A stretch of DNA of 5,974 nucleotides from a virus (taxonomy: Duplodnaviria; Heunggongvirae; Uroviricota; Caudoviricetes). How positions within the stretch are numbered: position 1 is the first letter of the stretch; each line of letters begins with the position of its first letter. The translations under genes were made by a program, and so were the position numbers. Of the stretch, positions 216 through 5,555 are shown in pieces. The notes beneath the pieces were generated by a model. That model had not been told where the DNA came from. It worked only from the letters and a program-made list of their open reading frames with translations, and did not search any database. Where the stretch lies: IMG/VR virus record IMGVR_UViG_2711768068_000006. One strand, written 5' to 3'.

Positions 216-368
216 CTTCTGTAATACCGCCGACAGGGAAGCCAGTTTCTCTTCAAACGCTTGTGCCTGCGCGGCCATCTTCTCCTCAAATGTGCGCTGT
301 AAATCCGCCAGCACCGTGGCGAATTCTTCTCCCAGTGCACGAATAATGGACAGTTCCCGTTCCGTCAT
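1..368 (-). CDS. Hypothetical protein, N-terminal portion only (continues beyond the left edge); predicted coiled-coil N-terminus followed by tandem ~25-aa repeats carrying an IPVPxDG motif
   Basis: Hand translation of the minus strand from an ATG at 368-366 that overlaps the portal stop (ATGA at 365-368). It reads MTERELSIIRALGEEFATVLADLQRTFEEKMAAQAQAFEEKLASLSAVLQKHVTVDEVHPVLQAMVDDAVGTIPVPRDGRDYDPDVLQQAVNDAVANIPVPADGKSITPDDVRPMLEQMVKE... with no stop to position 1. It is not in the ORF track because its stop is outside the window. The overlapping plus-strand ORF 151..423 is Cys/Ser-rich and looks spurious. Confidence 0.55.
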   Translation of the reverse strand, partial: MTERELSIIRALGEEFATVLADLQRTFEEKMAAQAQAFEEKLASLSAVLQKHVTVDEVHPVLQAMVDDAVGTIPVPRDGRDYDPDVLQQAVNDAVANIPVPADGKSITPDDVRPMLEQMVKE

Positions 369-1729
369 TTTCTCAGTATCCCCCTCAACATCGCTTTCAC
401 CGCACCATGCTCTGTTTCACTGATTGCCTTATTACCGTCAGATGCGCCGTCAGGCAGTTGGGCTGAAACTCTTTTCCCGGACGACGCAAACGGATCCTCA
501 CGGGCATCACGACGGGACAGCGCCTCCAGACTGTAGTTCTGCTGCTGAAGATACAGTGCATCACCGCCGGCCAGGGGCGGCAGGTTCTCCCGTTTACGGG
601 CCTCATTGGGCGTGAGAAGCGTATTTTTCACCGCATCCCCCAGCGTTTTCATGCGCCGCTCACTGTCCATTCTCAGCAGCGTGGTGACATCAAATTCTGT
701 ACTCTCGTTTTCCCCCGTTTCCAGCGCCTCATCCAGTAACAGTTCAATGGACTCAATCAGCGTCTGCAGGCACTGGGAATAATACTGCTGCTCCAGCGCC
801 TCCACGTTGTCACTGGAAGGCGGTTGTCCCACGCCAATCTTGTAGGCCGGGACACGGAACACCGAACAGACAATTTCAGCGGTCATCTTCAGTTGTTCCA
901 CCGTCTGCGCATCCACAGGTGAAAACGTCGTGGGGTTGTATTTTGCCCCGTTGCTCAGAATGGCCGTTTTCCCCGCATTTTCGCCTGTATACCCGCTGTC
1001 CCAGTTGCTCTTCAGTTTTTTCGCATTTTCTTCCGTAATACTGCCGGGGATCTCAATCACCCCGGACGGCCTGCCGCCATTTCTGAAAAAAGACGTCGAA
1101 TTTTCCTGAATATGATGCCCCTGCGTGGCCGCCAGCCCGGCGGCATACACCGGCGGCAATCCTATAAGCGGATGAAAAAAACAGTTAAACCGGTCGTGGA
1201 TCACTTCCCGGGCAGGCACCGTCACCGCCTCCGTGATCCCGCAGTTCCGGTCCGGCGTGATGCGGTAGAACACCTCGCCGTCATCCGCCACCAGAGGTTC
1301 AACCCGGCTCCAGTCCAGAATACGCAGTTCTTTGATCTGCCCCCGGGCATTACGGATTTTCAGCACCACCGTATTGCCATGACGCAGTTTGGCGTTCAGC
1401 CACAGTTCAAAAAACTGGATGCGGTTCTGCTGGGCGTTGGGACGACGACAGAGGCGGGCAATATCCCCCCGGCGCGTTTCCCTGCGTATCCCATGCGCAT
1501 CCGTCTGCATAAGACGCAGCCGCATTTTGGCGATATCCTGGGATATCAGCGAAATACATGCAAACACCGCATGAAAGGAGAGGACGGCTTCAGGATCGGC
1601 TTTCACGCCCTGCTGCCAGGCGCCGGAAAAGGGCTCAGCCACCGCCTGAAACAGGCTGGTCCAGCCCGCCTCTCTTACGTCACGTCCTGATTTCTGGTTT
1701 TTTCGGGTTCGCCGTAAAAGGTTCCACAT
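365..1729 (-). CDS. Portal protein, HK97 family (454 aa)
   Basis: Track ORF. The translation has the N-terminal motif typical of HK97-type portals (AVLSFHAVFACISLISQDIAKMRL), a central FFRNGGRPSGVIEIPG...NAGKTAILSNGAKY block, and a C-terminal VFRVPAYKIGVG...SDNVEALEQQYYSQCLQTLIESIELLL block. Length is typical. Confidence 0.85.
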   Translation of the reverse strand: MWNLLRRTRKNQKSGRDVREAGWTSLFQAVAEPFSGAWQQGVKADPEAVLSFHAVFACISLISQDIAKMRLRLMQTDAHGIRRETRRGDIARLCRRPNAQQNRIQFFELWLNAKLRHGNTVVLKIRNARGQIKELRILDWSRVEPLVADDGEVFYRITPDRNCGITEAVTVPAREVIHDRFNCFFHPLIGLPPVYAAGLAATQGHHIQENSTSFFRNGGRPSGVIEIPGSITEENAKKLKSNWDSGYTGENAGKTAILSNGAKYNPTTFSPVDAQTVEQLKMTAEIVCSVFRVPAYKIGVGQPPSSDNVEALEQQYYSQCLQTLIESIELLLDEALETGENESTEFDVTTLLRMDSERRMKTLGDAVKNTLLTPNEARKRENLPPLAGGDALYLQQQNYSLEALSRRDAREDPFASSGKRVSAQLPDGASDGNKAISETEHGAVKAMLRGILRK

Positions 1730-1896
1730 TCGCCATGCTCCGCATCACGTTTCTTTTTCTGACCTGCCGGACGTCGCACCGTGATGTACTCCGCCTTTCC
1801 CAGGCGAACCAGCACCTCCGCACACGGCTGTGCCACATCACGGATATCCCCGGCCCGGGCATCATGCGTGCCCTGCAGATATCGGATCTTTGCCAT
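1675..1896 (-). CDS. Hypothetical small protein (73 aa) between the capsid and portal genes; its 3' end overlaps the annotated portal start by about 55 nt in a different frame
   Basis: Track ORF with an ATG start that fills the otherwise 211-bp gap between the capsid stop (1941) and portal start (1729). The translation is protein-like (MAKIRYLQGTHDARAGDIRDVAQPCAEVLVRLGKAEYITV..., basic tail). An SD-hairpin-ATG arrangement lies upstream. I did not recognise a family. Confidence 0.35.
   Translation of the reverse strand: MAKIRYLQGTHDARAGDIRDVAQPCAEVLVRLGKAEYITVRRPAGQKKKRDAEHGECGTFYGEPEKTRNQDVT
1738..1741 (-). promoter_or_regulatory. Shine-Dalgarno (GGAG) for the portal gene
   Basis: Minus strand reads GCGGAGCATGGCGA-ATG, giving 8-nt spacing to the ATG at 1729. 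Confidence 0.55.
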
Positions 1897-1905
1897 AACC
1901 TGTTA

Positions 1906-3883: not shown

Positions 3884-3889
3884 CCTCCT
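3884..3889 (-). promoter_or_regulatory. Shine-Dalgarno (AGGAGG) for the protease-capsid ORF
   Basis: Minus strand reads CAGGAGGCTGAT-GTG, giving 5-nt spacing to the GTG start at 3878. Confidence 0.7.
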
Positions 3890-3916
3890 GAAAATAAAAA
3901 AACCGCCGGAGCGGTT
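3889..3916 (-). terminator. Intrinsic-terminator-like hairpin plus U-tract between terL stop and the capsid-gene ribosome-binding site (oriented with the minus-strand operon)
   Basis: Minus strand reads ...CACG AACCGC TCCG GCGGTT TTTTTATTTT CAGGAGG...: a perfect 6-bp stem with a 4-nt loop, followed directly by a 10-nt T-rich run. On the plus strand the same hairpin has no downstream T-tract, so it is directional. The stem is short, so strength is uncertain. Confidence 0.4.
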
Positions 3917-3941
3917 CGTGATGGTTACAGTGTGAACAGGG

Positions 3942-5555
3942 TTATATGAAAAAAACCGCATATTCTTTCTTTTTCGGTTCCGGGTTAAGGGACATCAGGG
4001 AGACCGCATTGAACAGCGCCATCAGCGGGTCAATTTTTCCCCGTCCACTGGCCTGTTTGGTGATAAGAATGGCGTTACCTTTAGGCTCCACCCGGGCATT
4101 GCCGACACACCAGGCCATCAGGGGCTGGTCACCATGCACCAGCACCCCTTCAGCCAGTTTGCGCTCGGTGGTTTTAATGGCCCCGCCCAGTTTCCAGCCC
4201 TGGCTTATCCCCACCACAATTCCGTCGGGGATCCCGGCTTCCGCCAGTGAATCCAGAATCTGCCCCACCCCTGACGGGTCAATACCGATATGGTCCAGTA
4301 ACTCAGCCTCATGAATGCGACGCACATATTCCGCCACTTCCGCCGTGTCATCCCCGACACGCCGGACAATGGTCATATCTCCACAGGCAACAAGATCCTG
4401 AAACCGGGACGCCTCGCTCTTCCGTCGGACCACCGCGGTTTCATGCGCCCAGGCATGGCCCCAGCCCAGCCATTCGCGGGTTTCCCTGTCACGGCCAATC
4501 ACGTACATTCCCAGCAGATCATCCAGGCCCCCGCCGTCAATCCCCACCGTCACCACATCAGCGCGCTGCAGGATATCGTCCAGGCTGACGCGCCTGCCCT
4601 GCTGCTCCCAGAAATCCGCATGTTTTGACATGAAGCCACGAAATGCTTCCTCACCAGCCTCCCGGGCTTTACGGTACTCCCGGTACAGAAAAGCCTCATC
4701 CACCGAATAACCGAGATTCGGGTTAACCATGGCGAGGTTTTCCATCAGCAGGTGAGCCCCGCTTTCCACCATTTCAGGAGGATGCTCAAAAATCACCGGC
4801 AGAAAGTGCGGATCATGAATTTTGCCGTCACGGACATCCCGGGCATACTGCAGTTTCTGTCTGAACACCCCGGCGGGCGGTTCATTCGACTGGGTGGTCG
4901 TATACACCACAAACCCTTCCGGACGGGAGGCAAGCCCGCCGATGGCTTCACGTAGCATGTCTTCCGCCTTGTACTGCTTGCCAAACAGCCACAGTTCATC
5001 AATCAGTGTCCCCACGGACTTGATACCGGACACCGTATTCGGATCGGCTGCCACCACCTTCAGGGTGGTGTCCGTCACCCTGTGGGTGATGGTCCGGATA
5101 TGTGTCTGCACCTGACAGAGGTCATCCAGATCATCGTCCCGTCGTACCATATCCCTGGCAGGGTTGAAGGCGTTAGCCGCCACCTCCACGGTCGGGGCCA
5201 GAATCGTGTAACCCGCCGCCTGCCGCCAGTTCAGTAACAGTGCAGTCATCATGATCCCCGCGGCCAGCGTGGACTTCGAGTTTTTCTTGGGGATAAGGAT
5301 AAAAACTTCCTTGATATGGCGTACACCGGTCTGCGCATCGTAGGAGCCAAACAGGGCCGCCACCAGGTCAAACACCCACGGTGCACAGGACTCCCCGAAC
5401 GTAGGGCTACCAGGTGCATCCACAATCCGCAGTTGTTTAAAAATCGCCAGGGCATGTGCGGCCTCGTCCGGATAAATCGGATCCGGAATAATCGACAGCC
5501 CCTTTTGCAGGCGCTCTGCCCAGTCCGGGCAGGCTGTGCTCCATACAGGTATCAT
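3942..5555 (-). CDS. terL: Terminase large subunit (TerL), ATPase plus nuclease, 537 aa
   Basis: Track ORF. The translation has a Walker A-like P-loop (FILIPKKNSKSTLAAG), a Walker B-like hydrophobic stretch ending in DE (TLIDELW), and a C-terminal acidic nuclease-like segment (VTVGIDGGGLDDL). Length is typical of HK97-type large terminases. A GAGGG Shine-Dalgarno sits about 6 nt upstream of the ATG (plus 5562-5566). Confidence 0.88.
   Translation of the reverse strand: MIPVWSTACPDWAERLQKGLSIIPDPIYPDEAAHALAIFKQLRIVDAPGSPTFGESCAPWVFDLVAALFGSYDAQTGVRHIKEVFILIPKKNSKSTLAAGIMMTALLLNWRQAAGYTILAPTVEVAANAFNPARDMVRRDDDLDDLCQVQTHIRTITHRVTDTTLKVVAADPNTVSGIKSVGTLIDELWLFGKQYKAEDMLREAIGGLASRPEGFVVYTTTQSNEPPAGVFRQKLQYARDVRDGKIHDPHFLPVIFEHPPEMVESGAHLLMENLAMVNPNLGYSVDEAFLYREYRKAREAGEEAFRGFMSKHADFWEQQGRRVSLDDILQRADVVTVGIDGGGLDDLLGMYVIGRDRETREWLGWGHAWAHETAVVRRKSEASRFQDLVACGDMTIVRRVGDDTAEVAEYVRRIHEAELLDHIGIDPSGVGQILDSLAEAGIPDGIVVGISQGWKLGGAIKTTERKLAEGVLVHGDQPLMAWCVGNARVEPKGNAILITKQASGRGKIDPLMALFNAVSLMSLNPEPKKKEYAVFFI

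Follow-up and report, generated by a model that had tools for sequence, protein, structure and literature searches.

A head and packaging module with the portal gene behind a protease-capsid fusion, and its place among the lambdoid prophages of Escherichia coli

The nearest described counterparts of the genes that were analysed in this study are found in the Sakai prophage Sp10 and the Shiga toxin 2c (Stx2c) phage 2851. These genes, which encode a phage head and its DNA-packaging machinery, lie on a 5,974-nucleotide stretch of viral DNA (IMG/VR record IMGVR_UViG_2711768068_000006; hereafter the window, meaning that stretch at its full length). Prophages Sp6, Sp9, Sp10 and Sp12 were previously described as having a "slightly different" organisation of the head genes (PMC2669165), and this brief remark was all that our literature search on the gene order found. 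Sp10 retains all of the morphogenesis genes, and its DNA was shown to be packaged and to be transferable to K-12 (PMC2669165). The related phage 1717 was grouped with the siphoviruses (PMC7946995). Two other systems are needed for comparison: phage HK97, in whose record the order is terS, terL, portal, protease and major capsid protein, and the phage-inducible chromosomal islands of the capsid-forming kind (cf-PICIs), which were defined as elements of 10-18 kb that have no lytic genes and no complete tail (bioRxiv 10.1101/2025.02.11.637232).

The window departs from the canonical order of HK97. All of its long open reading frames (ORFs) with database support are on the minus strand, and they encode, in the direction of transcription, terS (partial), TerL, a protease-capsid fusion, a 73-aa ORF, the portal and a further head gene (partial). 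Families were assigned using Pfam, PHROG and NCBIfam, and the assignments were unambiguous and far beyond chance:

5552 to 5974, minus strand: terS, C-terminal part only (phrog_641, E=1.6e-34); the gene starts past the end of the window.
3942 to 5555, minus strand: HK97-type TerL, 537 aa (ATPase domain PF03354, nuclease domain PF20441; phrog_9).
1941 to 3878, minus strand: protease-linker-delta-capsid fusion, 645 aa, with a GTG start (PF04586, PF05065, TIGR01554).
1675 to 1896, minus strand: conserved small ORF, 73 aa, between the capsid and the portal (phrog_829, E=3.7e-39).
365 to 1729, minus strand: HK97-type portal, 454 aa, complete (PF04860, E=1.5e-81; TIGR01537, 351.4 bits, cut-off 112).
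1 to 368, minus strand: post-portal gene, N-terminal 122 aa (phrog_1289); its start overlaps the portal stop (ATGA) and it runs off the window.

An earlier note, made from the letters of this DNA, had given ORF positions, gene identities, a permuted order, a fused protease-capsid and the lack of a separate scaffold gene, all of which were confirmed. It had missed the 73-aa ORF, the start of the post-portal gene at 368 and the fact that terS is cut by the end of the window.

The window is, with high probability, derived from a lambdoid E. coli prophage with a long tail, of the Sp10/2851 type, and represents the part of its late operon that serves head formation and packaging. The block is already known: it is among the commonest prophage head modules in E. 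coli and is carried by long-tailed Shiga toxin phages. Matches were found in 1,260 records from 1,255 of the 5,426 complete E. coli genomes, often at several sites per genome, and the whole window aligned with E. coli chromosomes at about 98% identity and full coverage (1,062 of the 1,260 records at 95-99%). Additionally, 94 phage records matched at 90-99%; these were mostly long-tailed Stx-converting phages and included 2851 (genus Pankowvirus), YYZ-2008 and 1717, while BP-4795 has the same capsid gene. At the protein level, the capsid, the portal and the product of the 73-aa ORF (orf73) were exact matches to widespread alleles, and the exact 454-aa portal was present on at least 24 contigs, all of them in a full lysis-head-tail context. 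Sp10 of E. coli O157:H7 Sakai (ECs_1970-1976) and phage 2851 (Pankowvirus pv2851) have the same genes in the same order at approximately 97-98% nucleotide identity and share terS, TerL, the 645-aa protease-capsid, the 73-aa ORF and the portal gene for gene.

The surroundings of the block were inspected in strain fS10a (locus L001), in the contigs with the exact 454-aa portal, in phage 2851 and in Sp10. In all four contexts, the holin, endolysin, spanin and HNH endonuclease genes were found upstream, and the Ad1, head-closure, gp10-like and tail-terminator genes downstream, followed by a complete lambda-like tail (tape measure, gpL, gpJ and fibre). The relatives carry the block inside prophages of 45-60 kb. 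Two points weigh against this placement. The lysis and tail context of the window itself is deduced from relatives that are about 98% identical, and the K-12 lysogens of Sp10 gave no particles (PMC2669165), because of which the autonomy of the form with a split portal is not proven. The same work found long-tailed particles with elongated heads of 44 x 95 nm in Sakai culture supernatants and attributed them to an unidentified lambdoid prophage (PMC2669165); their source was possibly a prophage with a head module of the window's type. As a separate observation, the divergence of the window from strain fS10a is mosaic, with approximately five mismatches in positions 500-4250 (3.75 kb) and approximately 5% divergence in positions 1-500 and 4250-5974, as recombination among lambdoid prophages residing in the same host would be expected to produce.

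This context also bears on what the earlier note had made of the gene order. It had left open whether the order and the compactness of the block indicated a phage satellite or defective element or a divergent phage lineage. The second option was borne out by the conservation of the order across Proteobacteria, while the satellite was not, as the relatives are tailed prophages and phages. A satellite or a cf-PICI-like island would build its own small heads and borrow its tails from a helper. Its attraction lies in the gene content: the HK97-type set (an HNH gene nearby in the relatives, terS, TerL, protease, capsid, portal and adaptors) is the set that is listed for cf-PICIs (e.g., EcCIEDL933 and EcCI2), which carry a self-contained HK97-type HNH, TerS, TerL, portal, protease, capsid, adaptor and connector. 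The capsid folds are also comparable, the cf-PICI capsid matures by proteolysis, and the capsid domain of the window matched the capsid of EcCI2 by fold with E=1.7e-10. That match, however, was no better than those to HK97, D3 and Bxb1. Moreover, cf-PICIs combine their 10-18 kb with an integrase and with replication and regulation modules and have neither lysis genes nor a complete tail, whereas all of the close relatives of the window that were examined (it is on these, and not on the window itself, that the definition was tested) have lysis genes and a complete lambda-like tail adjoining the block within a full-size prophage. Homologues that are 96-98% identical and have the same order are contiguous with lysis and tail modules, and the distant relatives with the same order are tailed too. 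The earlier note had itself named such a result, close homologues that are complete tailed phages, as the one that would speak against a satellite, and complete tailed prophages or phages are what the close homologues are. We therefore regard membership in a satellite as very improbable, and the unusual order of the head genes is no evidence for it.

The breadth of the order was assessed using a degenerate-pattern scan of one genome per species, which returned 28 loci. These belonged to Enterobacterales (Enterobacter, Kluyvera, Pantoea, Erwinia, Proteus, Arsenophonus and others), to Alphaproteobacteria (Rhizobium, Methylobacterium, Brucella and Haematobacter) and to one betaproteobacterium. 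The order (HNH), terS, TerL, protease-capsid, (small ORF), portal, post-portal gene and Ad1 was kept in all 28 as far as the contigs reach, two of which end before TerL, and the Rhizobium locus runs on into head-completion, tail-completion and tail-tube genes. The same order was found in the isolated phages Pseudomonas vB_PaS_IME307, Burkholderia vB_FUBS1 and Moraxella Mcat7; in FUBS1 and Mcat7, the protease and the capsid are separate genes, both still ahead of the portal. Judged by these comparisons, the non-canonical order is a stable trait of a widespread lineage of tailed phages with an HK97-type module.

The likeness to HK97 is extensive. TerL is homologous to that of HK97 (PDB 6Z6D, E=8.7e-10), the portal reaches the TIGR01537 threshold, the protease is homologous to gp4 and has the same His/Ser dyad, and the capsid, which scores above the TIGR01554 cut-off, has the HK97 fold and brings along, at its N-terminus, a helical delta-like domain that stands in for a scaffold protein. 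Furthermore, the Ad1, head-closure, gp10-like and tail-terminator genes follow, and in the relatives an HNH gene (gp74 in HK97) lies beside the terminase genes. In contrast to HK97, where the portal precedes the protease, it follows the capsid gene here; protease and capsid are encoded by one in-frame fusion gene; and there is an extra conserved small ORF as well as an extra gene for a repeat protein. Compared with the HK97 proteins, identity is low, at 33% in the protease, and the similarity of the capsid is visible by profile or fold only.

In one respect the window stands apart from its relatives. Its TerL has a private 48-bp in-frame deletion at 4617/4618, owing to which it is 537 aa long instead of 553. 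The deletion removes NVEIGLALRSDRWAGA, 16 residues that form the core of the motif KH(L/A)N(V/I)EIG..LR.DRW.G, the most conserved of the TerL family. This motif was conserved in 26 of the 28 intact TerLs that were aligned, from Enterobacterales, Alphaproteobacteria and Pseudomonas and Moraxella phages, while the TerLs of Diaphorobacter and Burkholderia phage FUBS1 differ at it. Both Sp10 and 2851 retain the 16 residues, and the TerL of the window is therefore not the intact terminase of their module type. In intact TerL, the lost segment lies inside the region that is covered by the Pfam nuclease-domain model, the match to which shrinks from residues 276-535 (40.0 bits) to residues 376-519 (33.3 bits). 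A 3-bp microhomology, GCA, flanks the deletion. The exact TerL protein of the window was absent from a collection of 15 billion proteins, the deletion junction had zero matches in IMG/VR and the Joint Genome Institute (JGI) metagenomes, and none of the E. coli matches listed (of 1,248 records) shared the deletion; all of them align in two pieces spanning 48 bp more than the query.

This copy is probably unable to package its own DNA, except where a related prophage in the same cell provides TerL. Against this it must be said that the inactivation of TerL by the deletion is a prediction from sequence and that the deletion could be an assembly artefact. A fully functional module, in which the deletion is tolerated or is an error of sequencing or assembly, would agree with the deletion being in frame, with the 537-aa ORF keeping both Pfam domains above the cut-offs, and with the intactness of all other genes, among them the capsid, portal and orf73 with their exact matches to widespread alleles. 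However, we consider it unlikely: the 16 residues belong to the most conserved stretch of the family (26 of 28), neither the listed E. coli matches nor IMG/VR or the JGI metagenomes contain the same junction, and a 3-bp microhomology is typical of a genuine deletion. The suggestion of a defective element in the earlier note may hold for this copy, owing to its TerL and not to the order of its genes. In strains with multiple prophages such as O157, the defects of one prophage can be complemented by others (PMC2669165), and the lesion in TerL is a defect of this kind.

The protease-capsid fusion consists of the following parts, of which the beta-rich domain at residues 20-152, the linker and the hairpin were delimited on an AlphaFold2 (AF2) model, with its predicted local distance difference test (pLDDT) score given for the hairpin (minus strand, residues of the fusion):

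Residues 20 to 152: S78 protease (PF04586, Peptidase_S78, at residues 48-152, E=2.4e-8).
Residues 156 to 189: disordered linker (AF2 model).
Residues 195 to 262: helical hairpin, delta-like (AF2 helices 195-222 and 229-262, pLDDT >95).
Residues about 293 to 645: HK97-fold capsid domain (PF05065, Phage_capsid, at residues 386-635).

The model, which was built from 105 diverse sequences, had a mean pLDDT of 86.3; it replaced one from a shallow alignment (10 sequences, >=73% identity) that was unusable (mean pLDDT 38.6). The protease domain aligned with gp4 of HK97 (hhalign, E=6.9e-6), and H65 and S114 of gp4, which we take to be its catalytic pair, align with H55 and S110 of the fusion. Both residues were invariant in 100 of 100 fused representatives, and on this alignment the His-Ser dyad of the fusion protease is intact. 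The protease scored 46.5 bits against TIGR01543, below the cut-off of 59 bits. Against NF045541 (scaf_prot_MCP2), the fusion reached 54 bits with a cut-off of 525, and only through its protease and linker part; it has the same architecture as the NF045541 proteins but belongs to a different sequence family. For the capsid, TIGR01554 (major_cap_HK97) gave 78.1 bits (cut-off 27.5), and the best Foldseek matches of the capsid domain were the capsids of Bxb1, D3 and HK97 (E=4e-15 to 1e-10). The homology of the capsid rests on TIGR01554, Pfam and the fold search, because an hhalign comparison of the fusion with the single gp5 sequence of HK97 gave no match.

The TIGR01554 model begins at the N-terminus of HK97, and its position 3 was aligned at residue 204 of the fusion, which places the helical hairpin at the position of the HK97 delta domain. 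A putative scaffolding role of the hairpin, which the earlier note had presumed for a capsid delta domain, is supported by both this alignment and the AF2 hairpin; no separate scaffold gene was found within the window or in the relatives that were inspected. Under the mechanism that we propose, DNA would be packaged by TerS and TerL in an HNH-assisted, cos-type manner, as in HK97, and the capsid's own delta-like scaffolding domain would make a separate scaffold gene unnecessary. The protease would enter the procapsid through its covalent link to a capsid subunit and would then trim everything N-terminal of the HK97 fold. The fusion had 1,197 relatives at E<=1e-30 among 1.84 billion cluster representatives; most of the best 150 were full-length fusions of 630-680 aa, and the fused architecture is therefore common. 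In three database proteins, P0046 (1,079 aa), P0266 (1,094 aa) and P0275 (1,091 aa), approximately 440 extra N-terminal residues precede a full protease-capsid, and in P0046 this extra part carries a TerL ATPase domain. These proteins could be genuine fusions of TerL with a capsid, or else artefacts of read-through or frameshifting.

Between the protease and the capsid, the comparison of the fused genes revealed a further feature:

3300 to 3318, minus strand: candidate internal ribosome binding site TAAGGA (3313-3318) with the in-frame ATG at 3302-3300 (Met193), found by comparison.

A start at Met193 would give a delta-capsid protein of 453 aa, encoded by positions 1941-3302. Met193 lies just past the disordered linker, the sequence of which is variable, at the start of the delta-like domain. 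In alignments, it coincides exactly with the first Met of the capsid proteins that Burkholderia phage vB_FUBS1 and Moraxella phage Mcat7 encode in separate genes, and it falls on residues 1-5 of the stand-alone capsid representatives. A Shine-Dalgarno (SD)-like motif was found upstream of a start codon in 26 of 26 fused genes, at a distance of 6-10 nt in the sequences displayed. The two apparent exceptions fit as well: in L029 the motif AAGGAA precedes a TTG, and in L033 GAGGA precedes an ATG that lies three codons farther upstream. The amino acids that the motif encodes vary (KE, KG, QG, EV, KEG and QEG), and the codons of KE, EV, KEG and QEG still spell AGGA or GAGG. Where Gly is encoded, its codon was GGA in 18 of 19 loci (GGG in L030), although GGA accounts for only 10% of the Gly codons in these genes; because the rare codon is kept while the amino acids vary, we argue that selection acts on the nucleotides. 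The residue at the junction is Met in 93 of the 100 fused representatives and Val in five of the other seven.

On balance, we lean towards the fusion gene being a nested gene with two products, the 645-aa protein from the GTG at 3878 and the 453-aa protein from Met193. The nested in-frame genes for a protease and a scaffold in lambda (C/Nu3) and in herpesviruses (UL26/UL26.5) are the closest parallels: there, too, one frame gives a long protease product together with a shorter one, made in larger amounts, that corresponds to the C-terminal part of the long one. Here, in contrast, the shared part would be the delta domain with the capsid protein and not a free scaffold, and the internal start is deduced from sequence. 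With two starts, translation initiation would govern the protease-to-capsid ratio, as in those systems, and the number of protease molecules that are targeted, in sub-stoichiometric amounts, into each procapsid. What weakens this reading is that the evidence is comparative, that the SD:anti-SD energy in Enterobacterales is modest (approximately -5.6 kcal/mol, within the top 10% of positions in each gene), and that the SD-like pattern could owe something to a conserved K/Q-G/E peptide motif.

It is also possible, though we are more doubtful of it, that the fusion makes a single polyprotein and that Met193 and the purine-rich motif are relics of a gene fusion or features of the protein, e.g., a cleavage site. 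Protease-capsid fusions are routinely annotated as single proteins (NF045541; "capsid and protease fusion" in actinophages), the SD strength is only moderate in Enterobacterales, and, by our estimate, the interior of the procapsid could probably hold one protease per subunit. Against a single polyprotein, the motif is kept at the nucleotide level, both in its GGA codon and in the AGGA or GAGG spelled by differing amino acids; the junctions without Met (the TTG codon of L029 and the Val in five of seven) are consistent with alternative start codons; and the motif is located where a disordered linker with a variable sequence ends. No description of an internal start in protease-capsid fusions was found in the literature that was searched, and annotation pipelines ignore such a start. 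If the nested two-product gene is real, it bears on the control of protease dosage in a lineage of more than 1,000 clusters at 50% identity.

The portal and the gene that follows it differ among the relatives owing to a single homopolymer:

380 to 384, minus strand: run of five G (five C on the plus strand) on which it depends whether portal and next gene are split or fused, found by sequence comparison with L001.

Compared with L001, the window has one G fewer at these positions, as a result of which the portal stops after 454 aa, its TGA overlapping the start codon (ATG) of the gene behind it. Five G (G5) give a separate portal and next gene, whereas six (G6) give a fused protein of 861 aa. 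Both alleles are frequent, with 26 contigs in IMG/VR having G5 and 37 having G6. Sakai Sp10 has G5, like the window, with a 454-aa portal and a separate gene of 407 aa, while phage 2851 differs in having G6 and a portal fused to the downstream gene (approximately 860 aa). The alleles mostly track lineages (nearest-neighbour concordance 0.84-0.91), and in the few G5/G6 pairs with identical flanks, occasional switching and homopolymer sequencing errors are indistinguishable. Elsewhere, the portal and the post-portal gene were in separate ORFs in 26 of the 26 other loci in which both were found. An ATGA overlap with similar terminal peptides was present in most of the 21 loci with an examinable junction, and the C-terminus of the window's portal (RGILRK before the stop) matches the portal ends of other genera (RGLLTK before the stop). 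Because the ORFs are separate in every other locus, the two-gene form is taken to be ancestral, and the 861-aa "portal" of many E. coli genomes appears to be a fusion of two genes by one extra G.

The post-portal protein is labelled "portal protein" in the databases and has 407 aa in Sakai Sp10. An alignment of 11 homologues showed that its N-terminus is helical, that 54-aa repeats of the P-x-P-x-D-G type follow in tandem, and that its C-terminal domain is conserved. It had a weak match to CBM_5_12 below the Pfam cut-off, and its profile search against the PDB gave no significant match. The gene is absent from FUBS1 and Mcat7, because of which we consider its product to be accessory and not a scaffold. 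The corresponding tandem 162-bp repeats lie at positions 1-204 of the window and 19600-20040 of L001, and their copy number varies, giving lengths of 299 versus 407 aa for the separate protein and 807 versus 861 aa for the fused form. A protein search with the 122-aa fragment of the window returned fragments only, mostly short entries at contig ends, which suggests that the 162-bp repeats break short-read assemblies.

The genes of the block are closely spaced: two intergenic gaps measure 63 and 44 nt, and three overlaps 4, 55 and 4 nt. The compactness that the earlier note had remarked upon is ordinary for the late operon of a phage. At one edge, the stop of terS overlaps the start of TerL by 4 nt, and the full terS homologue in L001 has 187 aa with PF03592 (Terminase_2). 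E. coli records carry an annotation of the 73-aa ORF, which overlaps the portal start by 55 nt. It occupied its position in 18 of the 18 Enterobacterales loci with readable sequence there, and alignable small ORFs are present at this position in the Pseudomonas, Burkholderia and Moraxella phages. Its place just upstream of the portal recalls gpW of lambda; no match to the gpW family was found for it.

Two hairpins lie in the intergenic gaps on either side of the fusion gene:

3900 to 3917, minus strand: hairpin resembling a terminator, followed by a U-run, within the 63 nt that separate TerL from the capsid gene (pattern scan; fold energy -14.4 kcal/mol).
1905 to 1926, minus strand: GC-rich 9-bp hairpin with no U-tract, immediately past the stop codon of the capsid (-19 kcal/mol; z=-2.15 against shuffled sequences).

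The total of terminator-like sites in the window was no greater than in shuffled sequence. The HK97 record has a putative terminator annotated after gp5, the place that is equivalent to that of the hairpin at 1905-1926, and either of the two hairpins could tune the expression of the capsid relative to that of the portal.

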